Assembly: GCA_963832745.1 (NCBI GenBank)
Contig: CAWHVC010000004.1
Coordinates: 203,604-267,603, forward strand
Length of the DNA: 64,000 bases
Source: Candidatus Bathyarchaeota archaeon
Lineage (GTDB): Archaea; Thermoproteota; Bathyarchaeia; Bathyarchaeales; Bathycorpusculaceae
Reading direction: 5' to 3'
A model generated the notes under the pieces. The model was not told the DNA's origin. It saw only the letters and a program-made list of their open reading frames with translations, and searched no databases. A program made the translations under genes and the position numbers. Shown piece after piece: positions 3 to 64,000 of this stretch. The stretch's first letter is position 1; the number at the start of each line of letters is the position of its first letter.

Positions 3-1094
3 GTTGCGGTTTTAACTGGTGTGCTTCTCATTATGGGTGGGGATACTCAGGCTAGAGAATACGCCGAGATGCCTTGGATAATTGATGTTCTTGTAGTCAT
101 TACATTAATTCTAATAGGAATCACAATAATTGGAACAATACTGAAACGGAAAGAACGTAAACTTTATGTGAGTTTATGGTTTTTCGCGGCTATTTTCCTT
201 TGGTTCCCCATAGTCTATTTCATAGGAAACGTAATGTGGAATCCTCCAACAGGTGCACTTTATGGCTTAACAGACGCCATCGTCAACTGGTTCTACGGAC
301 ACAACGTGTTAGGCTTATGGTTTACTCCTTTCGGGTTAGCTTTATGGTATTACTTTATACCTAAACTTACTAAAAGAGCATTATACAGCGTAACATTATC
401 GTTGATTAGCTTCTTTGCATTAGCGTTTTTCTACACTGGAGTTGGCGGTCATCACTTGCTTCAATCCTCAATTCCTGAATGGCTAAAAACAATCGCTGTT
501 GCAACAAGCGGTCTTATGATGCTTTCAGTTCTAACTTTCGCCACTAACATAGGCATGACAATGCGTGGCGCTTGGCATTCATTTTTAAGCAATGTACCTT
601 TAAGGTTCATTCTTTTCGGTTTTATCTGCTACATATTTGTCTCTATTCAAGGAACCTTTCAAGCACTTCGCGATATGAACCTCTACTTGCATTACTCTCA
701 ATGGACTGTAATGCATTCACATTTGGCATTATACGCATCATTCGGTATTACCATAATGGGCATAATGTTCTACGTTATCCCAAAAATTTCCGGAAAACAG
801 CTTTACAGCAAAAAATTGATGGATGTAACTTGGTGGGTTTCACTGCTTGGTTTTGTAATTTTCATGATGGGCATGTTACTGGCTGGATTAGTAGCTAACG
901 CAGGTTGGTTTACAAGTCAAACAATAGCGCAAGTTTTGCCACTGCTCCCTCCTTACTTTATTATACGAGCAATAGGCGGCGGAATAGTTGTTGTATCTGC
1001 TTTCCTGTTCGCTATTAACATTATAATGACAATTTTGTCCAAACCAACAGGTGAAGAGTTGACTAAACAAACAATGGTGGTGCAGCAGGCATGA
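3..1094 (+). CDS. ccoN: cbb3-type cytochrome c oxidase subunit I (C-family heme-copper oxidase), 5'-truncated by window edge
   Basis: Polytopic membrane protein; WFYGHN (helix VI His), YTGVGGHH (helix VII Tyr plus CuB His-His), WTVMHSH (heme ligands), YAEMPW and PPTGA-x-YG-x-TDA motifs; frame open from position 3. Confidence 0.9.
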   Translation, partial: VAVLTGVLLIMGGDTQAREYAEMPWIIDVLVVITLILIGITIIGTILKRKERKLYVSLWFFAAIFLWFPIVYFIGNVMWNPPTGALYGLTDAIVNWFYGHNVLGLWFTPFGLALWYYFIPKLTKRALYSVTLSLISFFALAFFYTGVGGHHLLQSSIPEWLKTIAVATSGLMMLSVLTFATNIGMTMRGAWHSFLSNVPLRFILFGFICYIFVSIQGTFQALRDMNLYLHYSQWTVMHSHLALYASFGITIMGIMFYVIPKISGKQLYSKKLMDVTWWVSLLGFVIFMMGMLLAGLVANAGWFTSQTIAQVLPLLPPYFIIRAIGGGIVVVSAFLFAINIIMTILSKPTGEELTKQTMVVQQA

Positions 1095-2677
1095 ATGGCT
1101 TCGAGAAAAAACTAGAAAAGAACTTTGAAAGAATAGAAAATGCTGTAACTAATCAAACAAAACATCGTAAAAAACTAAGCTTCAAAAATCTTTTCCCGTT
1201 AGTAGCTGGTGGGGTGGCTGTCTTCCTGCTTATGGTCAGCATGGTTGTAGTTGCTCCTTACATGTTCCTCTTAGATGTCCCCCCAACCGACACTGCACAC
1301 GTTTACACCACGCAAGAAGCTGAAGGCAGAAGCCTTTACATGAGTTTAGGTTGCTTCTACTGCCATTCTCAACAAGTTCGAGCCTCTGACTGGGGACTAG
1401 GCAATGTTTCTCAAGAAGGCGACTACGTGTATGACAGCCCGAACTCTTTAGGAACAGAAAGAACTGGTCCTGACCTTGCTCAAATAGGCGGTATGCGTCC
1501 AACTGCTTGGCATCAAATGCATTATAGAGATCCAAGAAGCGTATCTCCCGGTTCAATAATGCCCAACTTTGAATTCCTAACAGACCAACAAATCGATTCC
1601 TTAATCACCTACATACAGAACCTCGGTCAAGAAAACCTACAAGTTCAACAATCAATAACTAACGGCTCCGCCTATCACCCGGTAGTTCCTGAAGAATACA
1701 TAAACGCAACCAACCAGTTTGAACCAATGTATCTAACCGTTTTATCACAATATGATGCAACAAATGATGTTTACAATGGCAATGCCTCACTTGCAGATCA
1801 ATGGGCTGCGATTTATGACGTTGCCAAAGCCGATTACACCCAACGATGCTTACCTTGCCATGGCTGCTCTGGAAATGCTCAGGGCCCATACGCTCGGCAT
1901 GTGGTAACTCAACCCGCTAACCTGCATGAAAGAATCGCTACTTTTCCAGGTGATAACTATCATATCTGGCGAGTGAGTGAAGGTGTGCCTGGAACTGCAA
2001 TGCCTGCATGGAAGCTTTCTCTAAACAGCACCGAGATTCAGTTAATCGCAATTTACGAAATGAGCTTTGTTTTTGGTTCAGCAAGAACTTTTCCAGGAAG
2101 CACCTCAGACGATGAAGGCGACAATTACGCATTGACTGTTTTGAATACGCCGCCAATAAGCGGTACTCAGCAAGATTTCCAGTCAGGACAAGACATTTTT
2201 AATTTATACTGCGCTCAATGTCACGGTTCAGATGGTCAAGGTGACGGTCCAGCATCCATCAATGTTCCTGGCGGATATATCAGCCCTGCTCCAGCCAACT
2301 TTACAGAGTCAGGAAGCGACTTCCAATATTATGGCAGATACGTCTGGAAAGTAAAAGAAGGAGTAGAAACGACCAACATGCCACCATGGAAATACGCCTT
2401 ATCAGACAACGAAATCTACCAAGCAGTCTTATACGTTCAAAGCTTTTCAACAGCACAAGATTACAATTCAAAATGGGCACCACAATACACAGACCCCTAT
2501 GCAAGAAACCTCAAGATTAACGCTGCATCAAGTAGCTTCACAAGTATAGAAACTAACCCTGTTGCCGTAATAGCGGTATTGTCCGCTGCTGTGCTTTGGA
2601 ATCTGCAGGTAAATCGCCAAATTTTACGAACCAAAAATTTAACCTGTTTTTTACGTTTTAGGAGGAACCTGAAGTGA
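1091..2677 (+). CDS. ccoO: cbb3 oxidase subunit II (CcoO) fused to two further cytochrome c domains (triheme)
   Basis: N-terminal TM; GCFYCHSQQVR...GTERTGPDLA...PGSIMP CcoO signature; further CLPCH and CAQCH heme motifs with distal AMPAW and NMPPW Met ligands; ATGA overlap with ccoN. Confidence 0.88.
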   Translation: MNGFEKKLEKNFERIENAVTNQTKHRKKLSFKNLFPLVAGGVAVFLLMVSMVVVAPYMFLLDVPPTDTAHVYTTQEAEGRSLYMSLGCFYCHSQQVRASDWGLGNVSQEGDYVYDSPNSLGTERTGPDLAQIGGMRPTAWHQMHYRDPRSVSPGSIMPNFEFLTDQQIDSLITYIQNLGQENLQVQQSITNGSAYHPVVPEEYINATNQFEPMYLTVLSQYDATNDVYNGNASLADQWAAIYDVAKADYTQRCLPCHGCSGNAQGPYARHVVTQPANLHERIATFPGDNYHIWRVSEGVPGTAMPAWKLSLNSTEIQLIAIYEMSFVFGSARTFPGSTSDDEGDNYALTVLNTPPISGTQQDFQSGQDIFNLYCAQCHGSDGQGDGPASINVPGGYISPAPANFTESGSDFQYYGRYVWKVKEGVETTNMPPWKYALSDNEIYQAVLYVQSFSTAQDYNSKWAPQYTDPYARNLKINAASSSFTSIETNPVAVIAVLSAAVLWNLQVNRQILRTKNLTCFLRFRRNLK

Positions 2678-2826
2678 ATATTGACATGTTGATATATACT
2701 ATAGGCGCTTTTCTCATTACTCTAATAACGGCTGGTTTTGTAGTTTGGGCTTTCAAGACTAAACAGTTTGAAGCCAACGACTTTTTACGTTACATGCCAC
2801 TTGAGGAGGACGCAGACGAAGAATGA
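2674..2826 (+). CDS. ccoS: cbb3 oxidase assembly protein CcoS/FixS-like (50 aa, not in ORF track)
   Basis: Manual translation MNIDMLIYTIGAFLITLITAGFVVWAFKTKQFEANDFLRYMPLEEDADEE: TM, WAxKxxQF and acidic tail as in CcoS; AGGAGG upstream; overlaps both neighbours by 4 nt. Confidence 0.8.
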   Translation: MNIDMLIYTIGAFLITLITAGFVVWAFKTKQFEANDFLRYMPLEEDADEE

Positions 2827-3113
2827 CGTGGCCATTTTACTTAACTGCATATATTGTCTATCTTGATCCAACTTACGTTTACTTTACGTTATTCTTAATT
2901 GCAGCAGTTTCAATTGTCATCTACTTAGTTGTCAGAAGTTCGAACGATTTCTCAGTTGAAGAGACCGAAAAAAACTCTGAAGATTTTGCCGGAGAAGTTC
3001 GTGACTCAAACGGTCCAGTGACCAAATGGCTCTGGGTAGTTTATGCTGGATTAATAATTTGGGCATTAGCTTATTTGGTTCAGCATTGGAGCGAATTTGC
3101 GGTTTTCCCATAA
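2823..3113 (+). CDS. small membrane subunit resembling CcoQ plus the CcoP N-terminal (FixP_N) anchor
   Basis: Two TM segments; FAGEVRDSNGPVTKWLWVVYAGLIIWALAY resembles the FixP_N pattern GIxExxNPLPxWWxxxFYxTIxxAxxY; last gene of the operon, followed by T tracts. Confidence 0.65.
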   Translation: MTWPFYLTAYIVYLDPTYVYFTLFLIAAVSIVIYLVVRSSNDFSVEETEKNSEDFAGEVRDSNGPVTKWLWVVYAGLIIWALAYLVQHWSEFAVFP

Positions 3114-3175
3114 AATCTATTTTTTCAATTTCTACCTGCGCGCTTTTTTTGATTTCAGAAAACTAATAAATTGGT

Positions 3176-4501
3176 TTGTTACGTTACTTTCAATGGTGTC
3201 CTTGTTTGGTTACTGAAAAAGTTACTCGATTTTACGGCTGCCAATTAACCACTACTCATTCAGCAAAACAACATAAACTAAGCAAACTAATCGCTTGGCT
3301 TTCTGATAAAGAAGCGCCAGACCGAGAATTTATTTCTCTTTACATTCCCCCGCATATTTCAATAGAGCAAGTGGTAGCAAACATCAAAAAAGAAGCAGAA
3401 TCAGCAGTTCTTGACTCAAAAAACGCTACTGACCGCCTACAAACCGCAGTAAAAAACATGCTCCAACATGTCAAAGCAAAAACTGAGTTGCCGGAAAACG
3501 GCTTAGCCATTTTTGCAGGAACTTTCCTTGGGAATAACCAAGATAAGCCTGTTTTAAACGTGGAAGAACTTGTTCCACCTCAACCGATTGCGACGTATCT
3601 TTGTAAGGCCGATAACCAGTTCGAGTTAGAACCACTGAGGCAAATGTTAAGAGATGAACGTATTATTGGTTTGATTTCGTTGGATTCTAAACAGGCAAGT
3701 TTTGGGTTGGTTGTAGGTGAACGTTTTGAGCCTCTGAAAAGCATTTCTTCGGGGGTTATGGGAAAAACTGGTAAGGGTGGCCAAAGCCAGAGACGCTATG
3801 AAAGGGAACGTGACATGTCTATCGGTTTCTTTTTTCGCCGAATCGCAGAGCACGCGACAAAAGAGTTTCTTGAAAACCGCAGCATTACCTTGCTAATAAT
3901 CGGCGGGCCTGGACAAACAAAAAATGATTTTCTAAAAGGTGATTACCTAAATTACATGTTAAAAGATGCTCTTTTTGGCATGTTTGACGTTCAATCAGCA
4001 GGTCCAGAGGGCGTCAGGGAAATTTTTGAAAAATCATCTGATAGCCTAAAAAATGTTTGTTTGCCGGTTGAGCGGAAAGTTATGCAGCGGTTACAGATTG
4101 AACTTAACAAGGATGCAGGGTTAGCCATAACCGGTTTAGACCCAGTGCTTGAAGGCTTAAAAACTGGCGAAGTTGAAGTGGCACTTGTCACGGACTCAAC
4201 TGATCTGATACAAGCAGATGCTACATGCAAAAAATGTGGTTTAACAAAAAATGAACTGCTGCATAAGTCATACATTCAGGGTCTGCAGGAGTTCCTTTCA
4301 ACGCCCTGTACCCGTTGCAACGCAGTGGATTTCGAGTTGGCTGAAAAAGACATCATCGACGTCTTAGAAGACTTGGCTGCACAAACAAAGGCAAGCGTTG
4401 AAGTGATATTTACAGGGTCAGACGAAAAGGCGCAGCTTACTACTCTGGGCGGATTTGCAGCTTTACTAAGATATCGCTCTAACAATGAGGGCCTAGCCTG
4501 A
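3176..4501 (+). CDS. aRF1/eRF1-family peptide chain release factor paralog
   Basis: ISLYIP, ENGLAIF, GKGGQSQRRYER, GGPGxTK, CxxC...CxxC minidomain, LGGFAALLRY; NIKS absent; true start uncertain. Confidence 0.85.
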   Translation: MLRYFQWCPCLVTEKVTRFYGCQLTTTHSAKQHKLSKLIAWLSDKEAPDREFISLYIPPHISIEQVVANIKKEAESAVLDSKNATDRLQTAVKNMLQHVKAKTELPENGLAIFAGTFLGNNQDKPVLNVEELVPPQPIATYLCKADNQFELEPLRQMLRDERIIGLISLDSKQASFGLVVGERFEPLKSISSGVMGKTGKGGQSQRRYERERDMSIGFFFRRIAEHATKEFLENRSITLLIIGGPGQTKNDFLKGDYLNYMLKDALFGMFDVQSAGPEGVREIFEKSSDSLKNVCLPVERKVMQRLQIELNKDAGLAITGLDPVLEGLKTGEVEVALVTDSTDLIQADATCKKCGLTKNELLHKSYIQGLQEFLSTPCTRCNAVDFELAEKDIIDVLEDLAAQTKASVEVIFTGSDEKAQLTTLGGFAALLRYRSNNEGLA

Positions 4502-4555: not shown

Positions 4556-7153
4556 TTAGGGTTTTCTGTAGAGTAATGCGCCGACTATTGCTACAACAAC
4601 CATTACTGCTATACCCATAGCTACAATGGTCATTGTGTAGTCTGGTACCGAAATTTCCTGTTGCTGGCTTGATGGTGATGGTTGTGCTGCGCCTACCACT
4701 ACTGAAGTTGATGCGGAAGAGCTGCCGTACGAGTCGTCGCCCATAAAGGATACAATAATTTGGTAAGTTCCTTCCAAGTCTGGTGTCCAATCAATGCTGA
4801 AGGTTCCATAGTAACCGTTGGTTGTAACTTGGCCAATGTCTACTGTGTTTCCATTGGGATCAATAGCTGTGAGTATTACTTGAACGCCGTCTATTGTTTT
4901 ATTATTCCAGATTCCGCCAATTGGGTACTGTAAATGCAAGTACTCCATTTGTGTCGACATTGAATCTGCAGAAACGCACGGTGTGCCTGGCTGCGCTGGT
5001 GACATGTCTAAAACAGTGCCCTTGATTACTACTCCGTTGCCTTTTGCAATTACAATATCTGGAGCGGTTACGGTGGTTTGGGTTTCGCCTTTGCCGAAAA
5101 CAAATTCATAGCCGTTTCTTGAGTCAGCTGCGGCCAAGTATCCATCTGCTAAACCGCCAATTGCCATGGGGTTTGCTATTCGCCAAATTAGCTCGCCAGT
5201 TGTAGCGTTGATGCATAAAGTTCCCCAACCTCTTGTCAAGGGTTGGCTTTCAGTATGTTCAGTGTTGTATGTGTACATTTTGCCATCCACAATCTGGGCG
5301 CCAGTATTAATCGAGTATACAGTTGTTCCGTTTTTGTCTGTGTAAGGGCTTTCGTACATACTTAATGCATAGTCAACGTAATGCCAAACTATGCTACCAT
5401 CAGTCCAGTCAAAAGCGTAGACGCCGTCGTATGCTTCGCGGTATAACATGCCGTAAGCTGATTGTATAGCGTAGGCTCCGAATGCTGGCTCAGCCCATGG
5501 GTAATCCATTGCTTCACCTTTCCACGCTAGATTGCCTGTAGCTAAATCCCACGCCATAAAGTATCCGCCCATCATCAGGACTGCCACTTTGCCATGATCA
5601 GCTACACACACTGTCATGCTGTAGCAAGTATCTTTAACGGTTGTGTTCCAAAGTACTGCTCCAGTGTATAGATTGAAGCCTACAACGTTTGTTCCATACC
5701 ATGCGCCGACTTCCGGGGGTGTAAGTGACGTAACTGTTGCGCCATAACCTGTTTGCCAATCTATTAATGAAGGCAAACTAGCACTCGCATATGAGGTGTT
5801 GCTTATTATTCTTGAAGTAAAGTTAGTTGATGAACCTTTTGTAGTCCAGTTAATCAGCCGATAGTTAGGGTTAGCTGCGTTGCCAGCATTTTGGACACTT
5901 AAAACGTAGCCGTCCATCTGATTGTATAGTGTTCCACTGGTTAAAGGTGCAATTGAAGTATTGAGTGTCAAAGCGCCCGTGGCTGGATTCCATTTGTATA
6001 GACGACCGTTGCTTATTGTTAGCAACTCTATTGAGTAAGTTCCTACGGCTGCTGCTCCAGGTACTTCTAAGTTGCCACTTTGCGTGTAAACTATTGTGTT
6101 TGGCACTAAAGCAGTTGTGAACATCATTCCAAACATTGAAGCTGTCGTTGTTGCTGCAGGCTGTTCAAAGTAGACTTCTCCAGTGCGTAGATCACTACAT
6201 CGCCAATATGTTGCCCCGTTTTCTCCAGGTTTAGTATAACTGTCATAAACTTTTCCTGCATAAATCAAGTTAATGCTGCCGGGGCTGCTGGTTGTGGCTA
6301 AATTACCTGCTGGTCCACCGATTAAGCCTGCTATTGTATCTGAACGCTTCCAGACTATGTGCCCAGTTTCTGGTCCTTGAACCCATGGATGAAAATTGTA
6401 TTGTGCACTCCACATTGGATTGGTGTCTGGGTAAAGCATGTCCCACATTGGACCGCCACCTTGATAGCCTGTGCCTGGATAGTTGCCAAGTATTGGCCAC
6501 CATTCTCTATTTTCTAGTGCTACGGGTCTTGTCCAATAGTCTGTTGGTAATGGTGATTCAGGCCATGGCCAAACTGGGTCTTCTTGTACTGTTAGGGTTT
6601 GTTCTGCAGTTGAGCTTGGTTCGTAGTAGCAATCTCCGTTGAAGCTTACATAGCCTGAACCGAAAACTGCTCCTGGGTCTGCTGTGTAGTTTCCTGCCGG
6701 GAAGTATCCGCCTGGGAATTCAAATTTAAGTTTCCATTCACCGAGTTGGTCTGGTGCAAATTCAAACCAAGCGGTAGTGTCAGCTTCATAAGAATCCATC
6801 ACTCTTACGTCTGTGTGTCCTTGGGGGTCTGTGATTGTCACTTTGTAATCTGACATGTATCGGCTAACATGTGTTGCTGGGTTAAGCCAAACGTTGACTA
6901 GGACTGTTTGGCCTTTGCCGACTGGGTTTGGTCTAAAGCTTAGAAACGCGTGAGTTTCAATGGTTACGTCTGGAGTTATGCCTGATGCTAAGGGTCCTGG
7001 TATTGAACCGCCTTCTTGCAAGTTTGTTGGTGTAACGCCGGGTGGTAAAAAGGTTGATTGTGCTTGTGCTGGCGTTAACATTGCTATGGAGGAAATGATG
7101 AGAATTGCGGTGATAATCATTGAAAAGGTTGCTTTTTTGATAATTTTCTGCAT
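4556..7153 (-). CDS. large secreted, C-terminally membrane-anchored PQQ-like beta-propeller protein
   Basis: Signal peptide, repeated DxxTGxxxW blades, Ig-like C-terminal region, TM anchor ending YRKP. Confidence 0.75.
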   Translation of the reverse strand: MQKIIKKATFSMIITAILIISSIAMLTPAQAQSTFLPPGVTPTNLQEGGSIPGPLASGITPDVTIETHAFLSFRPNPVGKGQTVLVNVWLNPATHVSRYMSDYKVTITDPQGHTDVRVMDSYEADTTAWFEFAPDQLGEWKLKFEFPGGYFPAGNYTADPGAVFGSGYVSFNGDCYYEPSSTAEQTLTVQEDPVWPWPESPLPTDYWTRPVALENREWWPILGNYPGTGYQGGGPMWDMLYPDTNPMWSAQYNFHPWVQGPETGHIVWKRSDTIAGLIGGPAGNLATTSSPGSINLIYAGKVYDSYTKPGENGATYWRCSDLRTGEVYFEQPAATTTASMFGMMFTTALVPNTIVYTQSGNLEVPGAAAVGTYSIELLTISNGRLYKWNPATGALTLNTSIAPLTSGTLYNQMDGYVLSVQNAGNAANPNYRLINWTTKGSSTNFTSRIISNTSYASASLPSLIDWQTGYGATVTSLTPPEVGAWYGTNVVGFNLYTGAVLWNTTVKDTCYSMTVCVADHGKVAVLMMGGYFMAWDLATGNLAWKGEAMDYPWAEPAFGAYAIQSAYGMLYREAYDGVYAFDWTDGSIVWHYVDYALSMYESPYTDKNGTTVYSINTGAQIVDGKMYTYNTEHTESQPLTRGWGTLCINATTGELIWRIANPMAIGGLADGYLAAADSRNGYEFVFGKGETQTTVTAPDIVIAKGNGVVIKGTVLDMSPAQPGTPCVSADSMSTQMEYLHLQYPIGGIWNNKTIDGVQVILTAIDPNGNTVDIGQVTTNGYYGTFSIDWTPDLEGTYQIIVSFMGDDSYGSSSASTSVVVGAAQPSPSSQQQEISVPDYTMTIVAMGIAVMVVVAIVGALLYRKP

Positions 7154-11905: not shown

Positions 11906-12472
11906 ATGACTGAGACACCAGCAACTCAAGCTTCTAATGGGGAACAGCCGATAAAAGCTTCTGAACTGGACCCCAAGTTTAAGTATGAACTTGTAAAGAT
12001 GCATGGAAGCGAAAATATCCTCAAATGCTTCCAATGTGGAACCTGCACCAGCGATTGCCCCGTTGCACGTTTCAGTGACAGTTACCGACCGCGTACTTTG
12101 ATTCATATGGCAACTCTTGGCTTAAGAGACCGCGTGCTAAAAAGCGACACACTCTGGTTATGCGCAGCTTGCTTCACGTGTACCGACCGTTGCCCACAGG
12201 ACGTTGAAGTGGCAAGCGTAATTCGTGTATTCCGCAACTTAGCCGTTGAAAACGGTTGCATACCCCAAGTTTTCAAAGACCAATTTGGGTCAGTTCTCGA
12301 GTCAGGTTACGCTTACAAAATCCCTGAATTACGCATTAAAAAGCGTGACTCCCAGGGGCTTCCACCGTTGCCTAAAGGTGACGCAGACAAAGTCCAAAAA
12401 GTCCTAAAAGGCTTAAAAATAATTGACAAAATCCAAAAACCTCAAGGAGAAAACGCAAATGCAAAACAATAA
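11906..12472 (+). CDS. hdrC: heterodisulfide reductase subunit C
   Basis: CFQCGTCTSDCP and WLCAACFTCTDRCPQ 4Fe-4S motifs; overlaps hdrB. Confidence 0.92.
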   Translation: MTETPATQASNGEQPIKASELDPKFKYELVKMHGSENILKCFQCGTCTSDCPVARFSDSYRPRTLIHMATLGLRDRVLKSDTLWLCAACFTCTDRCPQDVEVASVIRVFRNLAVENGCIPQVFKDQFGSVLESGYAYKIPELRIKKRDSQGLPPLPKGDADKVQKVLKGLKIIDKIQKPQGENANAKQ

Positions 12473-13355
12473 GTACCTGATTTTTTTGGGCTGCGCTATT
12501 CCTTACCGTGTTTCCAGTTACGAAATTTCTTCACGCAAAGTGTTAGCTAAACTTGGGGTTGAACTGGTTGAAATGCCTGAATTCAACTGTTGCGGTTTAC
12601 CACTTGACCCCGTCAGCCATGAAGCAATGCTTGTGTTAGCTGCAAAAAATTTGGCGCTTGCAGAAAAGGAAGGCTTAAACATCCTAACGTTATGCCCAGG
12701 CTGTGCAGGGACACTTAAGAAAGTTAACAAAATCCTAAAAGAAGACCCCTCGTTAAAGCAGAAAATTAACGAGCACCTTAAAGAAGCAGGTTTAGAATTT
12801 AAAGGAACAGTCGAAACCAAACATCTGCTTCAGTTTCTAAAAGAAGACGTTGGCTTAGAAAAAATCAAAGCAGCCGTCACAAAACCGTTAACAGGCCTAA
12901 AAGTTGCCGAACATAACGGTTGCCATATTCTGCGGCCTAAACAGTACATTGGGTTTGATGATCCTGAAGACCCGCAAACTCTTAAAATGCTGGTTGAAGC
13001 AACTGGCGCCACCTGCCTTGACTATGTTGACGAGACTGAATGTTGTGGTGCACCCAGCGTTGGGGTTAGCGATAAGGTTGCGTTGTCGCTTGCAAGAGAT
13101 AAACTTAGCCACGTAAAAGATGTTCAAGCTCAAGCCTTGATAACTATCTGTCCATTCTGCCACATAATGTATGACACTAACGAGTTACGCATAGAGAAGA
13201 TGTTCAACGAAGCATACGGCATTCCTATTCTGCATTACCCACAACTACTCGGCTTAGCCATGGGCATGAATCCTGACGAGTTAGCATTCAAAGACCTCCG
13301 AGTCGACGCTTCAAACATTCTAAAACAGGTTGCTGCAATTCCCGACAAAGTGTAA
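12459..13355 (+). CDS. hdrB: heterodisulfide reductase subunit B
   Basis: FLGC, two CCG domains, CPGC, HNGCH, CPFCH, HYPQLLGLAMG. Confidence 0.92.
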   Translation: MQNNKYLIFLGCAIPYRVSSYEISSRKVLAKLGVELVEMPEFNCCGLPLDPVSHEAMLVLAAKNLALAEKEGLNILTLCPGCAGTLKKVNKILKEDPSLKQKINEHLKEAGLEFKGTVETKHLLQFLKEDVGLEKIKAAVTKPLTGLKVAEHNGCHILRPKQYIGFDDPEDPQTLKMLVEATGATCLDYVDETECCGAPSVGVSDKVALSLARDKLSHVKDVQAQALITICPFCHIMYDTNELRIEKMFNEAYGIPILHYPQLLGLAMGMNPDELAFKDLRVDASNILKQVAAIPDKV

Positions 13356-13451
13356 TCTTTTTTCTTTCATGTGACTTTTTTGGCGATTACTTTATTTTGC
13401 GATGATAAGTAATTAGACTTGACAGCTTACGTTATAATTTGGGGTTTAAAA

Positions 13452-14933
13452 TTGGCTCAAAAAAGCGTGTTAATTATCGGTGCAGGCATCGGCGGCTTAT
13501 CCGCAGGTTGCTATGCCCAAATGAACGGTTTTCAAACACAAATTTTTGAAATGTATACTCTCCCCGGCGGCCAATGTACTGCTTGGAAACGTGGCAGCTA
13601 CATTTTCGACGGCTGCATCCACCACCTTGCAGGCTGCAAACCCGGAAAACTCCTCTATGAGATGTGGGAAGAACTAGGCGCCCTGCCGCAAAGACCATTA
13701 ATTTACCCCGCAGACCTATGCCAAGTTGAAGATGAATCGGGCAAACGGTTTACCGTTTACGTTAACCTTGACCAGCTACAGCAGCACATGCTTGAACTTG
13801 CACCCCAAGACAAGTCCGCCATTGAAGGCTACATTAACGCAGCTAAAAGCTTCATGGACTTGGACTTCTTGGAAACTGCGTTGCTTGAAGGTGCCGCTTT
13901 CACTCGGCGGTTCCTCAAAATGGGTACAGTTCTAACTAAGTACGGTGCAAACATGACCAAGTACGCCGAAAAGTTTACTGACCCTTTTCTACGCAAGGTT
14001 TTTCCAACCATTCAGTATGACTGGACAGACATCCCCCTGTTCATTCACCTTAACATGATTGGCAACTGCGCCAGCAACAACTACGCTGTTCCAGCAGGCG
14101 GCTCACTCGAGTTTGCCAAAGCAATAGAGCAAAGATTCCTCAAACTCGGCGGCATTATCAATTACGGCAAAAAAGTCGACAAGATCCTTGTTGAAAACGA
14201 TAAAGCCGTTGGCGTCCGCCTAAAAGACGGCACAGAGCACCGTGCAGACATTGTGGTTTCTGACGCGTTTGGCTACACAACCATCTTCAGCTTGCTTGAC
14301 GGCAAATATGTAGATGACAAAATAAAGAAGCAGTACGCTAAGCATCAAGAAAACATGGTTATGGGTATTCACGTTTCATTTGGAGTGAATCGTGACCTTT
14401 CAAAAGAGCCCCGTGCGTTGGTGTTGTTTCTTGAAAACCCTGTAACTATCGCCGATCGGGAACACGCTAAGCTAGATTTGGAACTATTTGGTTACGACCC
14501 AAGCCTTGCACCAAACGGGAAATCAGTCATTAAAGCCCTCATAAACACAAACTACAGTTACTGGAAACAACTTTACAGTGACCCTGCAAAGTACAGGGCT
14601 GAAAAACAAAAAGTCGCTGACACTGTCCTGAAACTCCTGGAAAAACGGTTCCTCGGCATCCAAGGGCAAGTAGAAGTAGTCGACGTTGCCACGCCAATTA
14701 CTACTGAACGTTTTGTCGGTGTCGGTCAAGGGTTCGAATCCAACTGGGGTTTCTCTGACGCGGTAAGCATGATGCGTGGTCAACCCAAAACCCTGCCTAA
14801 ACTGCAAAACTTCTACATGGTTGGTTTCTCTGTTGGAGGCGGAGGCATTCCCGGTTGTGCCGCTATGGGACGCAACCTAGTCAAAAAACTCTGCAAGCAA
14901 GAACACGTTAGCTTTAATGCTTCAAAACCTTAA
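13452..14933 (+). CDS. FAD-dependent oxidoreductase, phytoene dehydrogenase-like
   Basis: IIGAGIGGL Rossmann motif, PGGQCTAWKRGSYIFDG, DVATPIT, GGGIPG. Confidence 0.85.
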   Translation: MAQKSVLIIGAGIGGLSAGCYAQMNGFQTQIFEMYTLPGGQCTAWKRGSYIFDGCIHHLAGCKPGKLLYEMWEELGALPQRPLIYPADLCQVEDESGKRFTVYVNLDQLQQHMLELAPQDKSAIEGYINAAKSFMDLDFLETALLEGAAFTRRFLKMGTVLTKYGANMTKYAEKFTDPFLRKVFPTIQYDWTDIPLFIHLNMIGNCASNNYAVPAGGSLEFAKAIEQRFLKLGGIINYGKKVDKILVENDKAVGVRLKDGTEHRADIVVSDAFGYTTIFSLLDGKYVDDKIKKQYAKHQENMVMGIHVSFGVNRDLSKEPRALVLFLENPVTIADREHAKLDLELFGYDPSLAPNGKSVIKALINTNYSYWKQLYSDPAKYRAEKQKVADTVLKLLEKRFLGIQGQVEVVDVATPITTERFVGVGQGFESNWGFSDAVSMMRGQPKTLPKLQNFYMVGFSVGGGGIPGCAAMGRNLVKKLCKQEHVSFNASKP

Positions 14934-29068: not shown

Positions 29069-29572
29069 CTAAAGCGGCGAAAGCAACTCTTTAAGCCAAC
29101 ATTCAACCTGTTCCGAAGCCGCCACAAGCTCAGCCGACAAGCCTTCGCCAAACTCTATTTTTTTAGGTTGAATCAAAAGCAAAGCAATCTTGGCGCCCGT
29201 GGCTTCTTTAAGGTAATCACTAAAAACTCGTAAAGGCAAAACATGTGTGCTAAACGCTGAGAAACCCGCAACCTGCTCGGGAAAAACCAGCCGCGCCTCT
29301 CCAGGCACCAACTCTAACATTGCAGCGTCAATCAGCAGCACGTGTGAAGGTTTGAATTCTTCGATTTCGAGGATATAATTTTCGGGTATGGTCTCGCATT
29401 CGATTAGGCATATGTTGGCTGAGAGTTTGTCCTGGAGTTGCTGGACTATTTTTGTTCCCACGAAATCGTCGCTACGTATGGGGTTTCCAATGCCTGCAAT
29501 AACCACTCTGTCAGCGTTGCTGAACCAGTTTTTAAGTTGCCTATAAATTTCAGTTTGAGGCATAAACTCCAC
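29069..29572 (-). CDS. hycI: hydrogenase maturation endopeptidase (HycI type)
   Basis: GIGNPIRSDDFVG, ETIPEN, IDAA, STHVLPL. Confidence 0.88.
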   Translation of the reverse strand: MEFMPQTEIYRQLKNWFSNADRVVIAGIGNPIRSDDFVGTKIVQQLQDKLSANICLIECETIPENYILEIEEFKPSHVLLIDAAMLELVPGEARLVFPEQVAGFSAFSTHVLPLRVFSDYLKEATGAKIALLLIQPKKIEFGEGLSAELVAASEQVECWLKELLSPL

Positions 29573-45875: not shown

Positions 45876-46022
45876 TTAGGCTGCTTGTGCTTTTGCTCTT
45901 TCTAATTTTTGCAACATCTTCTTTGTTGTTGGTTTGGGCTTAGATTTTACGCGGTATACGGTGCCGTGAGTGTTTTTGTAAAGTTTGTGTCCTTTTGCTT
46001 TTAATTGTGCTTTTCTTGGCAT
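45876..46022 (-). CDS. small highly basic protein (48 aa)
   Basis: MPRKAQLKAKGHKLYK...; GAGGTGA upstream; T tracts downstream. Confidence 0.55.
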   Translation of the reverse strand: MPRKAQLKAKGHKLYKNTHGTVYRVKSKPKPTTKKMLQKLERAKAQAA

Positions 46023-46226
46023 TATATCACCTCTAAATTGACGTAGACAATATTGCGTCACTTTATATGGCTACATGCCTAATTGCCTATTTGAATATGC
46101 ATGTAAAAACGTGAGAATTGATCATTACTAAAGTGTTGTAAAAATTTTTGTTTATAAGTACGGGTTGAGTATTTTATTAGGACTTGTAAGAGGAGCTTTT
46201 TGCAGGGACAACTGGAGAAAGATGTC

Positions 46227-46361
46227 ATGTTTAATTCCAAGAAATTGTTTGAAGTAACCTATAAATGTAGAGTGTGCTCTGCTCGTTTTAATAATCCTGA
46301 CGAATTGAGAATTCACAGCATGGTCAGTCATAAAGGGCATATGCTTGTAATTAAACGCTAA
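46227..46361 (+). CDS. stand-alone C2H2 zinc-finger microprotein (44 aa, not in ORF track)
   Basis: MFNSKKLFEVTYKCRVCSARFNNPDELRIHSMVSHKGHMLVIKR fits Y-x-C-x2-C-x3-F-x5-L-x2-H-x4-H; T7 tract directly after the stop. Confidence 0.75.
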   Translation: MFNSKKLFEVTYKCRVCSARFNNPDELRIHSMVSHKGHMLVIKR

Positions 46362-46990
46362 TTTTTTTGGTTTTGCTTTTTCGAGATTTAATTTAATTCC
46401 CTTTTTAGTTATTCGACAAAAACTGAAAAAAAGATTTGCAAAAAGAACAAACAAAAAATTGAGCAAAAACGCTTCTATGCTGATGTTGTTGCTGTCTTCT
46501 TTTTGACGTTATCAGTAAAGACCTTTTTTGTAGGTTTCTTCCTGTAGGTGCAATTAAGCCGAATTGATGATTTACATCTGCGGCAATTTTTTACTAAACC
46601 TGCTCGTAGCATACACAAATTTGTTTACCTCTTGATTTTTTTGAAAAGAATCAGTTATACGGTTAAGCTCAATTTCCTCAAGGGGATAAGAGAAACTCTT
46701 CAGCTTTATGTTTATGTCTTGCTCCCTAATAAAGACGGCAATTCAAGTTTTTTTGAAAATTAAAAAAATTTTGGCTTTTTTGGGTAAAAAGAGTTGGTAT
46801 TAAAAATTATTTTCGAAATTTAAGCCTAAAAAAAGGTGTTTTTTTATAGTCACGCTAATATACTCGGGAAAGCCATTATTGTATACTTAGGATTCTTTAG
46901 AGAAAGAGTTATCTCTCTGCTAAATGGTTTGCTTACTTTTTCTCCGATTTATTCTATAAAAGTTGGCAAAAAGCCAAATAGGTTATCTGG

Positions 46991-47296
46991 ATGGGTAGAA
47001 AAAAAATAACTAATGAAGGCAGTCTCGATAATATGGTGCTTCCTTCAGCAAATGATGTTTTAGGCGTTGCAGTAAAAATGCTGGGTGCCGATAGAGTCAC
47101 AGTTAAATGTCAAGACGGAAAAGAACGCTTATGCCGAGTTAGAGGCAAACTGAAAAAGCGTGTTTGGATTCGTGAGGGTGACATAGTTCTTGTTTCACCT
47201 TGGGATTTCCAGCAAGAAACACGCGGAGACATTTTCTGGCGATACAGGAAAAACCAGTCTGATTGGTTAAGAAATCACAATTATCTTACAATGTAA
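46991..47296 (+). CDS. eif1a: translation initiation factor aIF-1A
   Basis: KMLGADRV..CQDGKERLCRVRGKLKKRVWIREGDIVLVSPWDFQ. Confidence 0.95.
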   Translation: MGRKKITNEGSLDNMVLPSANDVLGVAVKMLGADRVTVKCQDGKERLCRVRGKLKKRVWIREGDIVLVSPWDFQQETRGDIFWRYRKNQSDWLRNHNYLTM

Positions 47297-47975: not shown

Positions 47976-48346
47976 GTGAGTTCTAACGCAACTTTAGGTC
48001 TGTTACTGAATATGTTGCCTCTCAACCCGTAACTGTGCAGCCACTTTTGCAGCAGATTCGACAAGCAATCAAAGAAGCCGCACCTGACGCTCAAGAAGTA
48101 ATCAGTTACCAAATGCCTGCCTTTAAGCAAGGTGAAGTATTGGTTTGGTATGCAGCTTTCAAAAACCACATCGGCTTTTACCCTAAAACTTCAGTAATGG
48201 AGCAATTCAAAGACAAATTAGTGCCGTACAAGACAAGCAAGGGCACAATCCAGTTTCCTTATGATAAGCCTCTTCCACTGGGGTTAATTAAAGAAATAGT
48301 TCAGTTTAGGCTAAAAGAAACTTCTCGGAAAGACTGGCCCGCTTAG
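47976..48346 (+). CDS. YdhG/DUF1801 family protein, N-terminal frameshift
   Basis: EVISYQMPAF, AAFKNHIGFYP, SKGTIQFP; one added A at about 47986 restores MSSKRNFRSVTEYV from GTG 47976. Confidence 0.8.
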
Positions 48347-48459
48347 AGTCTACTAAATTTTCCTGAGCAAAAATGTGGCTGACGTTTCGCAGTCACATAT
48401 TGTTAAGTAAGTACAGCAGAATTTTTTATTTGCTTTAGATCTTGATGGAGGTGAATTTT

Positions 48460-48891
48460 ATGCCTGATATTATTGATGCTGTCGTAGCCGAGGGTTCGTT
48501 CAAAACTCTTGTTGCAGCAATAAAAGCGGCAGGACTAGTCGATACCCTAAAAAATGGTGGTCCATTCACGGTTTTTGCGCCAAACGACGCTGCTTTTGCG
48601 CGTCTACCCCTTGGAACCGTTGATAATCTGCTTAAGGATATTCAACGTTTAAAGTTGATTTTATCCTATCATTTAGTTGCAGGCAAAATAATGTCTGATG
48701 ACATTCTAAGAATGAATAATGCAATAACCGTTGAAGGTGACGCTTTAAATTTTGATTCTTCCTTGTGGGAAATGCGTCGGAACCTCAGGGTTGACACGGC
48801 AGAAATCATTAAGCTAGATATTGCCGCTGACAACGGAGTTATTCACGTTATTGACCGAGTTTTGATGCCGCCGATTGAAATGACCCATTAA
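48460..48891 (+). CDS. fasciclin (FAS1) domain protein
   Basis: GPFTVFAPNDAAF, ILSYH, ADNGVIHVIDRVL. Confidence 0.92.
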   Translation: MPDIIDAVVAEGSFKTLVAAIKAAGLVDTLKNGGPFTVFAPNDAAFARLPLGTVDNLLKDIQRLKLILSYHLVAGKIMSDDILRMNNAITVEGDALNFDSSLWEMRRNLRVDTAEIIKLDIAADNGVIHVIDRVLMPPIEMTH

Positions 48892-54965: not shown

Positions 54966-56466
54966 ATTATTTTAGCCTCAAATTCTCAAACACACTTTTT
55001 CGCAGACAGATACGTATTAGGCAAAGACAAACTCGAGGAGTCAACCCACTTTTTAAGAATAAAAATCCCAAACGGACGCTTAACATCACAACAGTTCCGA
55101 TCAATCGCTGATTTATCCAAAACTTACGGCAAAGGCTACGCCGAAATAACTGACCGCCAAAACATCCAACTACACTGGATCGACCCACAAAACGCCCAAA
55201 CAATATTCGCAAGGCTTGATAGCATAGGGTTTTCAACGGACCACGGAGGTCAGGGCATTCCCGATCGCTCAAAAAGGTGACGTACGCGCCATCGCAAGCT
55301 GTCCCATTGCAGGTGTAGACAAAGACGAAATAATAGACACAATGCCAATAGTTAAGCAGTTAGACGCCTATTTTGACGGTAACACGGCTTTTTTGGATAT
55401 GCCTCGTAAACTGAAAATATCGATAAACGGTTGCAGCCTAAATTGTGGCAATTCCGAAATGCAGGATCTATCGTTTGTAGCTGTAAAACGTGATTTAGGA
55501 CATGTGGGTTTTGTAGTTTTTGTGGGGGGAACAGTTGCCACTGCCCCGCAGCTGGCTCGACCTCTCAACATAATCGTGACGTCCGAAGAGGTTTTGGAGG
55601 TTGCACGCTGCATTGCGGAGATTTTCCGGGACAATGGTAGCCGTGAAGTGAAAGCTAAAGCACGGTTTAGGTGGCTAGTTGACACTTTAGGAACCGAAAA
55701 GCTCCGTCAGTTGGTTGAGGAAAAGCTGGGGCATCCTCTTGAGACCTTCAAGCCTGAATACATGACCCACATTAAGGGTGAGCATATTGGCGTTCAGAGC
55801 CAAAAACAGGCAGGGTACTCATTCATTAACGTGCCAGTAATTGGTGGAGTTTTGTCTGCGGAAAAAATGCTAGAACTAGCGCAAGTGGCAGAAGATTTTG
55901 GCAACGGGACTCTGTGTTTAACACCTTTCCAAAACCTTATCATATTAAATGTGCCCGAACAATCTGTGGATACTGCTTTATGCCAGTTGAGTCATGTCGG
56001 TTTTAGTTTGGATGTTTCACCGCTCCGTTGGACAACCATTGCCTGCGCAGGCAATTTTTGTGGAAAAACCCTTGACCACCCCAAAAACCGTGCAAAAGAT
56101 GCTATCTACTACCTTGAAGAACGCTTTGGTCAGAAACTGGCAAACCTGCAGTTAACCATCGGTTTCAGCGGATGCCCCAATGGTTGTGCTCGTCACTTAC
56201 TCTCAGATATCGGCTTGCAGGGTACCGCGTTAAATGTTGATGGCAAAAACGTTCCCGCTTACAACCTGTATCTACGAGAAGAACAAGGTGCCATTCCAAC
56301 CTTTGGGAAGCTGATTCAACGGGCAATAAACGCTGAACAAGTCAAATATGCCTTAGCCAACCTCATCGAAGCATACCTGAACAATCCCCAAAACATGAGC
56401 TTTAACAAGTACTACAGCACAAAAACCGTTGAACAAATTCAGGAAATAATCAAAGCAAAATCATAA
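54966..56466 (+). pseudogene. ferredoxin-dependent nitrite/sulfite reductase (siroheme), one frameshift and no canonical start
   Basis: Upstream frame reads FLRIKIPNGRLT...EITDRQNIQLHWI and stops at 55278-55280; one extra base at about 55260 joins it to GDVRAIASCP, PRKLKISINGC, CAGNFC, SGCPNGC. Confidence 0.8.
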
Positions 56467-62399: not shown

Positions 62400-62417
62400 A
62401 AAATTAAATTTTTTGAG

Positions 62418-62491
62418 AGCCTCGAGCGGGCCTTGATCCCGCGGCCTGCTGCTTACAAGGCAGCCGCTCTACCGGGCTGAGCTATCGAGGC
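62418..62491 (-). tRNA. tRNA-Thr(UGU), CCA not encoded, non-canonical T-loop
   Basis: Same stems as the CGU copy; anticodon loop CTTGTAA; T arm GCGGG-ATCAAGG-CCCGC. Confidence 0.9.
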
Positions 62492-63382
62492 AATGCAAAT
62501 CATTTTTACACCAACACATAAAAACTTACCCAAATAAAGTTACTGCTGACAACAGCTGATTTTCTCCCTTAGGCGTGTTAAATGTTGCTATTTTCAGGTT
62601 TTTTCTGCGCTTTGTGACTTGAAGTTAGTTCTTTTTCGTGGATTCTTCGGTTTGTTGTTACTTCGTGTGTTTTTGAGTGGTCTTTTATGTTCAGTAATTT
62701 TTAAATCTAAAACCTGTTGGGGGGCGTCTGATATTTGCTTTTTTTGCAAATTGTGGTGAAGACAAAAAATGCGGTGGGTGCAATAGAAATCGCATATTGC
62801 TTCATTTTTTTGAGGCTCGCGCATTTTTACGATGTTTTTCTCGAAAAAAATCAGAAAAAAAGCGTTGGCATATCTATTGCACCACAAAAAAAACTGTGCT
62901 GAAATAAAAAAATGCGTAAAAATGGTTTTTCAGACGGGCATTTAATTCTTATGCGTAATCCTTTTATCCATTGTTTCATTCGTTATATAATTCAGCGAGA
63001 GCGACTTTCCATTGAAAACGATGCAAACCATCAGTTAGTGATGGTCATCAAAGCTTTGGAGGGCATAAAGTGTTTCGTCAAGAAACATCAATATCTGAAA
63101 CGATACCCTTATATTGCAGATAGTCGCTTCTAATGCAATTCAGCAATTATGGGCGAACCATAAAATAGCGAATCAATAGATGCAACTCCCCACCTAATAC
63201 GTGTGGAGTGAAGGGTGTGACAAGAGCCCACAGATGTCGAAATGTGCACGCTCACAATGACACCATGCATAGGCAACAATTAACGACGCGCAACACAACA
63301 ATGTATACAATAAGTAGTAAACGTATGTGGAGAAAACAATAGGTTTTCACCAAACGCCAAACGAACACTACCATTGGCCTGA

Positions 63383-64000
63383 ACATGTTACGCTGTCTGG
63401 AGGATGGCTCGGCTTGAGAGCCGAAGAAGGGCGCGGCAAGCCGCGATACCGCCTCGGGTAAGCGCAAGCAGCTTTAGAACCGAGGATACCTGAATGGGAC
63501 TTCCTAGTAATGTTCCTTTACGGAACGGGAACTCCCCGAACGGAAGCATCTTAGTAGGGGAAGGAAAAGAAACCAACATGGGATTCCCTTAGTAGCAGCG
63601 AGCGAAATGGGAATAGTCCAAACCGAATCCCGCAGGGAAACTTGTGGGAGATGTAGAGTTAAGGGCCCGGATTCTTCTTCCCTGACGAAGTTGAAATGGT
63701 CTGAAAAGACCTGCCACAGAGGGTGATAGCCCCGTAAACGCAAGTCAGAATGAATTATGTCCGGAGTCCCAGACTACTGTACCCTGGCATGGGTGCAGAA
63801 AGTTGGGAGTCACCAACTTCCAAGACTAAATACGCCTCAAGACCGATAGCGCACTAGTACGGTGACGGAAAACTGAAAAGTACCCCGGAATGGGGGTGAA
63901 AAGTGCCTGAAACCAGACAGTAACAGACGTGTGTGGCCCGGAAGAGTAGATCCTTTCTAAAGGAAACCATTGTGAAGTGGCTGTACGAGGAAAGGGGATC
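63383..64000 (+). rRNA. rrl: 23S rRNA, 5' part (runs off the window; 5' end approximate)
   Basis: GGATGGCTCGGCTTGAG..CCGAAGAAGGGCG, GGAAGCATCTTAGTA, AGTAGCAGCGAGCGAA, GACCGATAGCG..CTAGTAC, helix 2 pairing CTGTCTGG/CCAGACAG. Confidence 0.96.

Follow-up and report, generated by a model that had tools for sequence, protein, structure and literature searches.

Why should a genome of the Bathyarchaeia, archaea modelled as anaerobic fermenters and acetogens, carry the genes of a haem-copper oxygen reductase? The question is raised by the left end of a 64,000-nucleotide (nt) stretch of contig CAWHVC010000004.1 (positions 203,604 to 267,603; hereafter the window), where an earlier note, made from the DNA letters, had described a cbb3-type operon of four translationally coupled genes and proposed that an archaeon had acquired an oxygen reductase that uses c-type cytochromes. 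We conclude, with a probability of roughly 0.7, that these genes form a functional operon for a divergent, cbb3-like oxygen reductase of the C family, that the operon is native to a Bathyarchaeial genome and common to a clade of Bathyarchaeia, and that the enzyme consumes trace oxygen; the activity itself we infer from sequence.

The coupling of the four genes was borne out, as the open reading frames (ORFs) lie on the same strand and overlap in ATGA, GTGA and ATGA start/stop junctions, with an AGGAGG motif 8 nt ahead of the GTG start of the third at 2674. A short spacer separates them from the gene for aRF1, which starts at 3176, and its T-runs likely mark the end of the transcription unit at a putative terminator. 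The features are as follows.

3..1094, + strand: ccoN (ORF1), subunit I of a C-family haem-copper oxygen reductase, from matches to Pfam COX1 and to cbb3 CcoN chains in the PDB; 5′ end cut by the window edge
1091..2677, + strand: trihaem CcoO-dihaem subunit (ORF2), 528 amino acids (aa), from matches to FixO, Cytochrome_CBB3, PRK14486 and CcoO chains
2674..2826, + strand: CcoQ(FixQ)- or CcoS(FixS)-like protein (ORF3), 50 aa, a single transmembrane helix, from a sub-threshold FixQ match and conserved position
2823..3113, + strand: FixP_N-like protein (ORF4), 96 aa, two transmembrane helices, from a sub-threshold FixP_N match, homologues and a complex model
3114..3175, + strand: intergenic spacer with T-runs at 3120-3125 and 3144-3150, read from the sequence

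Subunits of a divergent C-family enzyme

The ccoN fragment spans 363 codons, with about 113-118 N-terminal residues lying outside the window (full-length relatives have 466-498 aa). It scored 212.7 bits against Pfam COX1 (cut-off 34.8) and, in a comparison with all solved structures, matched five distinct cbb3 CcoN sequences at E-values of 3e-54 to 4e-47, against about 1e-9 for solved B-family ba3 oxidases and 3.7e-6 for NorB of the solved nitric oxide reductase (NOR) cNOR. The fragment's YTGVGGHH (residues 144-151) aligns residue for residue with YIWAGPHH of the solved Pseudomonas stutzeri CcoN, the counterpart that the earlier note had named, which places Y144, H150 and H151 opposite P. stutzeri Y251, H257 and H258; H100 corresponds to H207, and H238/H240 to H345/H347. 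Five of the six metal-ligand histidines lie within the fragment and are kept, as that note had claimed, and the sixth, the haem b ligand equivalent to H60, is N-terminal of it and was found in all 16 Bathyarchaeial rows that cover this alignment column. Across 81 relatives (19 Bathyarchaeial, 37 fused-clade and 25 Anaerolineae-clade rows) and four reference sequences, neither the active-site Tyr nor any of the five ligand histidines of the fragment varies, the three of CuB included.

In the A and B families the cross-link Tyr lies in helix VI; here its place in helix VII, six residues before the His-His pair (Tyr-x5-His-His), predicts a His-Tyr cofactor. Residues T, Y, S, Y and N, which we take to be those of the C-family proton channel, are retained as well. 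Identity to the CcoN fragment is at least 60% in 111 of the 120 listed 90%-identity clusters, and the conservation across them is, on these identities, purifying. Because the matches to CcoN far exceed that to NorB, and because Tyr-x5-His-His and all visible ligands are present, the window CcoN is by these comparisons a C-family oxygen reductase and not a NOR.

The enzyme might still serve nitric oxide detoxification or respiration rather than oxygen reduction: relatives occur in Methanoperedens, presumably a nitrate reducer, and a NirA-like sirohaem reductase and a NosD-like protein are encoded elsewhere in the window. In the available part of Murali et al. (2024, PMC11214002), moreover, C-family enzymes reduce nitric oxide in vitro and NORs have evolved repeatedly from the C family. 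We consider a nitric oxide substrate improbable, however. Neither the active-site Tyr nor the three-His CuB site varies in the aligned sequences, whereas NOR families lack this Tyr (in agreement with the earlier note) and have FeB with an added Glu ligand, according to the same part of PMC11214002; the match to NorB falls short of that to CcoN by 48 orders of magnitude; and we saw no respiratory nir, nor or nos genes next to the operon in the window or in the annotated relatives. In cNOR and qNOR the subunit I fold is distantly related, and cNOR has a cytochrome c partner as well.

Within the C family, the window enzyme stands apart from the canonical type. Its fragment scored 222.8 bits on NCBIfam ccoN (TIGR00780), under the equivalog cut-off of 583.15, and TIGR00780 was nevertheless its best-matching named family, which marks it as belonging to a divergent subfamily rather than as a canonical equivalog. 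It is about 29-35% identical to canonical proteobacterial CcoN. The closest CcoN among the matches listed, P0001, is full-length and 96% identical to the fragment.

ORF2 begins with a transmembrane helix (residues 37-55), followed by a CcoO/FixO monohaem domain, two class-I cytochrome c domains and a hydrophobic C-terminal tail. All 19 aligned relatives keep its three haem motifs, CFYCH at 88, CLPCH at 253 and CAQCH at 374, and the candidate Met ligands M157, M304 and M430. It matched Pfam FixO at 122.1 bits (cut-off 29.6), Cytochrome_CBB3 at 82.1 bits in two stretches, PRK14486 'subunit II/cytochrome c' at 140 bits and solved CcoO chains at E-values of 2e-23 to 3e-21; its 109.6 bits on NCBIfam ccoO lie under the cut-off of 200.65. 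The dihaem part resembles CcoP weakly (57 bits on TIGR00782, cut-off 180; E 2e-5 to 3mk7_C) and matched a dihaem cytochrome of Kuenenia better (6h5l_B, E 1.7e-12). An AlphaFold2 model of ORF2 was poor (mean predicted local distance difference test score (pLDDT) 63, predicted template modelling score 0.49) and we drew no conclusion about the fold from it; a Foldseek search with this low-confidence model returned 6h5l_B at 1e-4, CcoO chains at about 1e-2 and CcoP at 0.58, which is not significant.

The operon holds no separate gene for a dihaem CcoP; the two additional c-haem domains are fused to CcoO instead. The CcoP membrane anchor may have a counterpart in ORF4, which matched FixP_N, the N-terminal membrane domain of CcoP, below the cut-off (E 5.6e-4, 20 bits against 24.9). 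FixP_N was also the only recurrent family among ORF4 homologues (11 of 25). A profile of the ORF4 family, searched against 1.84 billion proteins, found 90 representatives at E-values up to 1e-3; 88 were small proteins of 52-152 aa, of which 19 matched FixP_N (four at or above the Pfam cut-off), and not one of the 90 was as long as a complete CcoP. These matches are consistent with a link to the CcoP anchor, albeit a weak one.

A model of ORF4 with the full-length CcoN P0001 gave interaction prediction scores from aligned errors (ipSAE) of 0.82, 0.80 and 0.82, whereas none of three controls exceeded 0.00; the runs had at least 92% of their contacts in common, and the partner's pLDDT did not fall below 72. 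Of 157 solved complexes, 116 reach the mark that this pair passes, as do 2 of 215 mismatched pairs; our models were built on alignments of our own, so these counts apply only roughly. A similar complex, the CcoP helix on CcoN, has already been solved, so the pass may reflect that likeness. The model supports binding of ORF4 to CcoN as a prediction, and we regard ORF4 as probably an accessory subunit bound to CcoN.

ORF3 matched FixQ at E 9e-4 (19.5 bits, below the cut-off of 29). Among fourteen orthologues, six matched FixQ (one at or above the cut-off) and seven matched FixS (four at or above it).

How does this gene set compare with the canonical cbb3 operon CcoNOQP, as in P. stutzeri (3MK7/5DJQ) and on pRL9 of Rhizobium johnstonii (ccoNOQP-ccoG-fixH, L082)? 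The two share the CcoN fold, the six ligand histidines, the helix-VII Tyr, a monohaem CcoO and a total of three c haems; ccoO is followed in both by a small ORF, which in the window is Q- or S-like. The canonical enzymes, however, have a separate CcoP with its anchor, while in the window the dihaem module sits on CcoO and the anchor-like domain is a 96-aa gene of its own; where they have E323 and H243 the window enzyme has Gln and Ser; and the R. johnstonii locus carries ccoG-fixH, in contrast to the window and the flanks of seven relatives, where we found no ccoGHI. The designation of the operon as cbb3-type holds in so far as it encodes a C-family oxygen reductase, but not in the sense of a canonical CcoNOQP, given the lack of a separate CcoP and a score of 273 bits against the 583 of the ccoN cut-off for full-length relatives.

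An archaeal host and a clade of carriers

Is the operon part of an archaeal genome? The window encodes aRF1, aIF-1A, Alba, Dph6 (diphthine-ammonia ligase), TrmY and a LonB-type protease and contains the start of a 23S rRNA gene. Nine of the 120 listed aRF1 matches carry NCBI names, and eight of these are labelled 'Candidatus Bathyarchaeia archaeon' (closest 79%), such Bathyarchaeal labels being those of the submitters. The ninth, P0208, is an archaeal aRF1 under the label Zixibacteria and looks like a mis-binned short contig. Judged from the housekeeping genes, the archaeal 23S start and the labels of the aRF1 matches, the host of the window is Bathyarchaeial.

The two large operon genes have G+C contents (GC) of 0.396 and 0.437, a GC at third codon positions (GC3) of 0.38 and codon-usage distances of 6.3 and 4.5; across the 28 window genes of at least 250 aa the means are 0.432 (standard deviation (SD) 0.026), 0.418 (SD 0.052) and 5.57 (SD 1.24), respectively, so that in all three measures the operon falls inside the spread of the other 26 long genes. 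For both the closest CcoN (P0001, 96%) and an aRF1 of 81% identity (P0123), the records give a 26,963-nt contig from another source, which we assume to be one and the same.

On a 1,314,818-nt contig the corresponding identities are 88% for CcoN and 58% for aRF1. Slow evolution of CcoN could account for its stronger conservation, as could an exchange of the operon among members of the class. Recent lateral spread within the class, which the 88% against 58% might suggest, is a reading that we did not adopt, as the closer pair (96% against 81%) scales alike.

Scanning a collection of species-representative genomes with CcoN gave 459 candidate stretches, 431 of which encode a relative, and we kept the best 80 of these as loci L001 onward. 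The 18 closest loci, with CcoN 65-90% identical, come from 17 archaeal genomes, 16 of them titled Bathyarchaeota or Bathyarchaeia and one 'uncultured archaeon'; one carrier is a closed 2.94-Mb chromosome, others are contigs of 0.7-2.5 Mb, and the operon's flanks encode A-type ATPase subunits, aRF1, an RPB9-like subunit and an archaeal DHQS-II. By tblastn, the module of ccoN, trihaem gene and small ORF or ORFs was present in 16 of the 18 Bathyarchaeial loci, and the other two stop at contig edges. An ORF3 homologue occupies the same position in 15 loci, all Bathyarchaeial, and an ORF4 homologue follows the oxidase genes in 49 of the 80. Two loci, L016 and L019, lie about 807 kb apart on CAVZJV010000014.1, making two complete modules in one genome, each with the CcmF-like gene and 146-aa ORF described below.

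These data bear on whether a bacterial operon was joined to an archaeal contig near 3.1 kb in assembly or binning, an explanation invited by its place at the very edge of the window and by the mostly bacterial occurrence of C-family oxidases. Conserved gene order gives little help: almost no synteny was found between the window's flanks and those of the relatives, with only aRF1 in L005 (57%), Alba, DUF1801 and fasciclin matched, so that linkage of the operon to archaeal genes is not confirmed by synteny. Yet the window's aRF1 is recorded on a 267,603-nt contig, the pairing of ccoN and aRF1 recurs on the independent 26,963-nt contig if the records are read as above, and the Bathyarchaeial CcoN sequences make up a clade by themselves, with 55-58% identity to the closest sequences outside it. 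Given the typical composition, this separate clade and the presence of the operon among archaeal genes in 17 species genomes, Mb-scale and closed Bathyarchaeota assemblies among them, we hold a chimeric join to be very unlikely; we regard artefact as the origin of this locus as close to negligible.

In a maximum-likelihood tree of 80 rows (from which the partial rows L003, L008, L015, L055 and L062 were left out; L052 lacks an intact ORF) and in a second, careful tree of 48 selected rows, the Bathyarchaeial CcoN sequences, the window's included, formed one clade, with Shimodaira-Hasegawa-like approximate likelihood ratio test (SH-aLRT) support of 99 in the first and ultrafast bootstrap/SH-aLRT support of 100/99 in the second. 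This clade is nested in a well-supported group with fused enzymes, in which its sister group is not settled (76/87). The nearest non-Bathyarchaeial CcoN sequences among the 80 loci, 53-58% identical, come from Methanoperedens, Methanolobus, ANME-2, Dehalococcoidia, Syntrophales, Clostridia and Desulfosporosinus. The Methanobacteriota label changes three times on the tree; as both trees were rooted on canonical CcoN only, with no NorB outgroup, they do not give the direction of transfer between domains. L033 (Gudongella sp., 4.4-kb contig) places a 'Bacillota' CcoN inside the Methanolobus clade with full support, which looks like mis-binning rather than transfer.

In 33 of 37 sister-group loci, a single ORF of 879-985 aa combines ccoN with the trihaem gene (the remaining four loci are cut or broken), whereas the Bathyarchaeial genes are separate, with a 4-nt overlap. 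Such a fused CcoN-CcoO-dihaem cytochrome polypeptide occurs within L017-L055, for example at L040 6605-9562 in Methanolobus vulcani. These non-canonical enzymes (PRK14486, PRK14485; Sinorhizobium meliloti pSymA, L081; the 879-985-aa ORFs) have in common with the window enzyme Gln together with Ser, Gly or Ala at the two positions named above, the trihaem CcoO-dihaem layout and a downstream FixP_N-like protein; the Bathyarchaeial loci differ in their split genes, in the additional 50-aa Q/S-like gene, found in 15 loci and only there, and in a CcmF/NrfE paralogue and a 146-aa ORF. The S. meliloti cluster has a 554-aa FixO + two-cytochrome 'subunit II', and the trihaem architecture is thus not peculiar to archaea. 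On these alignments and trees, the enzyme is a divergent, non-canonical subfamily of the C family, and the operon is apparently a long-held, clade-wide trait. The earlier proposal is therefore upheld as to the presence of the enzyme in an archaeal genome and revised as to a one-off acquisition.

A gene of the CcmF/NrfE family of haem lyases (633-647 aa; TIGR00353, 172-183 bits) stands upstream of ccoN in 16 loci, directly upstream and on the same strand in those annotated:

about 0.1-2.8 kb upstream of ccoN: CcmF/NrfE-like gene, in L001-L007, L009-L012, L014-L016, L019 and L052

Most of these loci also have, between the haem lyase gene and ccoN, a conserved 146-aa membrane ORF of no known family. 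The corresponding position in the window lies beyond its left edge, and L008 has no sequence upstream of ccoN. In L013, a full ccmABCEF cluster, made up of ccmB, an ABC ATPase gene, ccmE, a ccmC-like gene and ccmF, lies 2-8 kb downstream of the oxidase; the locus also has genes for MtrC/MtrF-like multihaem cytochromes, TatAC and a [NiFe] hydrogenase with HycI. Cytochrome c maturation genes, which an oxidase of this kind had been expected to need, thus accompany it in the relatives. The oxidase-linked CcmF is 29-34% identical to that of the L013 ccm cluster and accordingly looks like a dedicated paralogue; with the 146-aa ORF it may form a dedicated maturation pair. Other neighbours in the relatives encode desulfoferrodoxin, OsmC, aldehyde:ferredoxin oxidoreductase, heliorhodopsin and a SOUL haem-binding protein; on the closed chromosome (L014, 15084-17142), heliorhodopsin, fasciclin and SOUL haem-binding protein genes lie 2-4 kb downstream of the oxidase.

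Broken or partial frames in some relatives, namely the absence of an intact ccoN ORF in L052 and the split CcmF-like gene of L001, raise the idea that the operon is a decaying, non-functional relic. All four frames in the window are open, however, with coupled starts and every catalytic residue kept, and the breaks elsewhere could equally be assembly errors; a relic is highly improbable.

Probable oxygen consumption and its likely use

If the operon is functional, electrons from a c-type cytochrome or another donor outside the membrane would enter the two distal haems c of the trihaem subunit, pass to the haem c of its CcoO domain and on to the low-spin haem b of CcoN, and end at the haem b3-CuB centre, where the predicted His-Tyr cofactor would permit four-electron reduction of oxygen to water. 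Protons would enter through the single channel of the C family. The 96-aa protein would replace the CcoP membrane anchor on CcoN, the 50-aa protein would be a CcoQ- or CcoS-type stabiliser or maturation factor, and the haems c would be attached by System I, using the CcmF/NrfE paralogue that is encoded near the operon in relatives. Such an oxidase, presumably of high affinity, would consume traces of oxygen at oxic-anoxic interfaces, protecting an anaerobic-type metabolism and yielding some proton-motive force. We count in favour of this interpretation the peroxiredoxin gene of the window and the desulfoferrodoxin and OsmC genes of relatives. Consumption of oxygen at low concentration is most probably the service of the enzyme.

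Several observations weigh against our interpretation. The 5′ end of ccoN and its promoter fall outside the window. The full-length relatives P0001 and L014 reach only 273 bits on TIGR00780, where the canonical CcoN of R. johnstonii scores 788, and two positions of the canonical reference are changed (P. stutzeri E323 to Gln, H243 to Ser, Gly or Ala); the same changes are found in non-canonical enzymes of aerobic S. meliloti (on pSymA) and Paraburkholderia (on a plasmid). No ccm, haem-biosynthesis, quinol:cytochrome c oxidoreductase (bc1, ACIII), copper-chaperone or ccoGHI genes were found among the window's other 60 ORFs, and within 10 kb on either side of the operon in seven relatives we saw CcmF or ccm genes but no haem-biosynthesis, quinol:cytochrome c oxidoreductase, copper-chaperone or ccoGHI genes. 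The nearest relatives are in Methanoperedens, Methanolobus, Dehalococcoidia, Clostridia and Syntrophales, carriers that are largely strict anaerobes, which fits scavenging better than growth-supporting respiration. C-family enzymes also reduce nitric oxide in vitro, in the part of PMC11214002 already referred to.

Might the enzyme instead support aerobic, growth-coupled respiration as the main energy metabolism of the clade? The dedicated haem lyase paralogue, the clade-wide conservation and the two operon copies in one genome (L016, L019) would suit such a role. Against it, HdrBC-like genes and a hydrogenase protease lie in the window, at 11906-13355 (HdrC/HdrB-like) and 29069-29572 (HycI-type), confirming that both are on the same contig as the operon; in relatives, genes for aldehyde:ferredoxin oxidoreductase, desulfoferrodoxin and a [NiFe] hydrogenase are neighbours of the operon; neither the window nor the 10 kb on either side of the operon in the seven relatives showed a donor complex; and the closest non-Bathyarchaeial carriers come from groups that we take to be anaerobes. 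Growth by aerobic respiration is therefore rather unlikely, and consumption of trace oxygen remains our preferred function.

A precedent for oxygen use in this class is the soil genus Houtuousia, whose order, Houtuarculales, we take to be GTDB 40CM-2-53-6. The available part of Hou et al. (2023, PMC10321748) states that Houtuousia 'exclusively' encodes cytochrome c oxidases, resembling those of Sulfolobus, and proposes that the genus is (micro)aerobic, which lends the growth-coupled alternative some support; a 2025 review (PMC12694404), in its accessible portion, repeats this account. As in the operon studied here, a haem-copper oxidase occurs in a class otherwise described as anaerobic, and those A-family oxidases too are read, in the same parts of PMC10321748 and PMC12694404, as an adaptation to (micro)oxic soil. 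They belong to a different haem-copper oxidase family, though, and the accessible text of PMC10321748 describes for them neither a c-type cytochrome subunit nor a Ccm linkage; its table rows read cydA, COX11, COX15, coxC and coxD, with no cbb3, ccoN or K00404 term in that part.

For the C family itself, Murali et al. (PMC11214002), in the part available, report a 'sparse distribution' in Archaea; their Dataset S6 lists Methanoperedens and Methanolobus species with C = 1, gives C-family = 0 in all 127 Bathyarchaeia rows and has A-family counts in 40CM-2-53-6. In the literature searched, as far as each text was accessible, we found no published attribution of a cbb3 or C-family oxidase to Bathyarchaeia (PMC7565565, PMC10386581, PMC13503563, PMC13502194), and likewise no cbb3 attributed to them in PMC8280799, PMC8470020, PMC11650866, PMC12766754 and one bioRxiv preprint; the accessible part of PMC8470020 gives for cbb3 only a community-wide share of metagenome-assembled genomes. 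Public JGI annotations name many of the CcoN relatives 'cbb3-type subunit I/II'. The C family and its presence in a few archaea are thus already known, and its presence in Bathyarchaeia is visible in annotations and is not discussed in the literature that we found.

A wider proposal, which we put forward tentatively and think doubtful as it stands, is that a whole clade of soil and sediment Bathyarchaeia has a cytochrome c-based microaerobic chain that ends in the four-gene oxidase and is matured by its own CcmF/NrfE paralogue, so that part of one of the most abundant 'anaerobic' classes of archaea would conserve energy from oxygen, and that at least three transfers have carried the oxidase module between Archaea and anaerobic Bacteria. 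If the operon does encode a conserved oxidase of high affinity, served by a haem lyase of its own, this would change how the niche of Bathyarchaeia at oxic-anoxic interfaces is read and would bear on their tolerance of oxygen pulses and their contribution to carbon turnover. The Bathyarchaeia would be a third archaeal lineage on the sparse list of Archaea with C-family oxidases, which bears on the spread of these enzymes between domains, and the operon is a concrete target for metatranscriptomics and heterologous expression.

Other features of the window

At 11906-14933 (+ strand), the HdrC-like and HdrB-like genes are followed by one for a 504-aa flavin adenine dinucleotide protein of the CrtI/amine-oxidase type. 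The HdrB-like protein scored 286 bits against an equivalog cut-off of 345 and also resembles an SdhE-type membrane anchor, so it is not necessarily a CoB-CoM heterodisulfide reductase. The NirA/sulfite-reductase-like haemoprotein (374 aa; 55342-56466, + strand) covers positions 170-502 of the 513-position ferredoxin-nitrite reductase model and is a short or N-terminally truncated form.

The 23S rRNA start lies at 63376-64000 (+ strand; archaeal, 513.8 bits, 625 nt) and is cut at the right end of the window. The 900 nt upstream of it hold a tRNA-Thr (62417-62491, - strand) and a small ORF (62594-62887, - strand) and no 16S, so the rRNA genes look unlinked. Within the window, G+C is lowest at 46001-47000 (0.319, against about 0.42), upstream of the aIF-1A gene at 46991-47296, and the fasciclin and DUF1801 genes at 48035-48891 are about 57-58% identical to the relatives' copies. 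Just past aRF1, at 4556-7153 (- strand), an 865-aa protein combines a signal-like N-terminus, a PQQ/BamB-type beta-propeller, an Ig-like domain and a C-terminal transmembrane helix; paralogues 30-32% identical to it are encoded near the oxidase in L002, L010 and L019.

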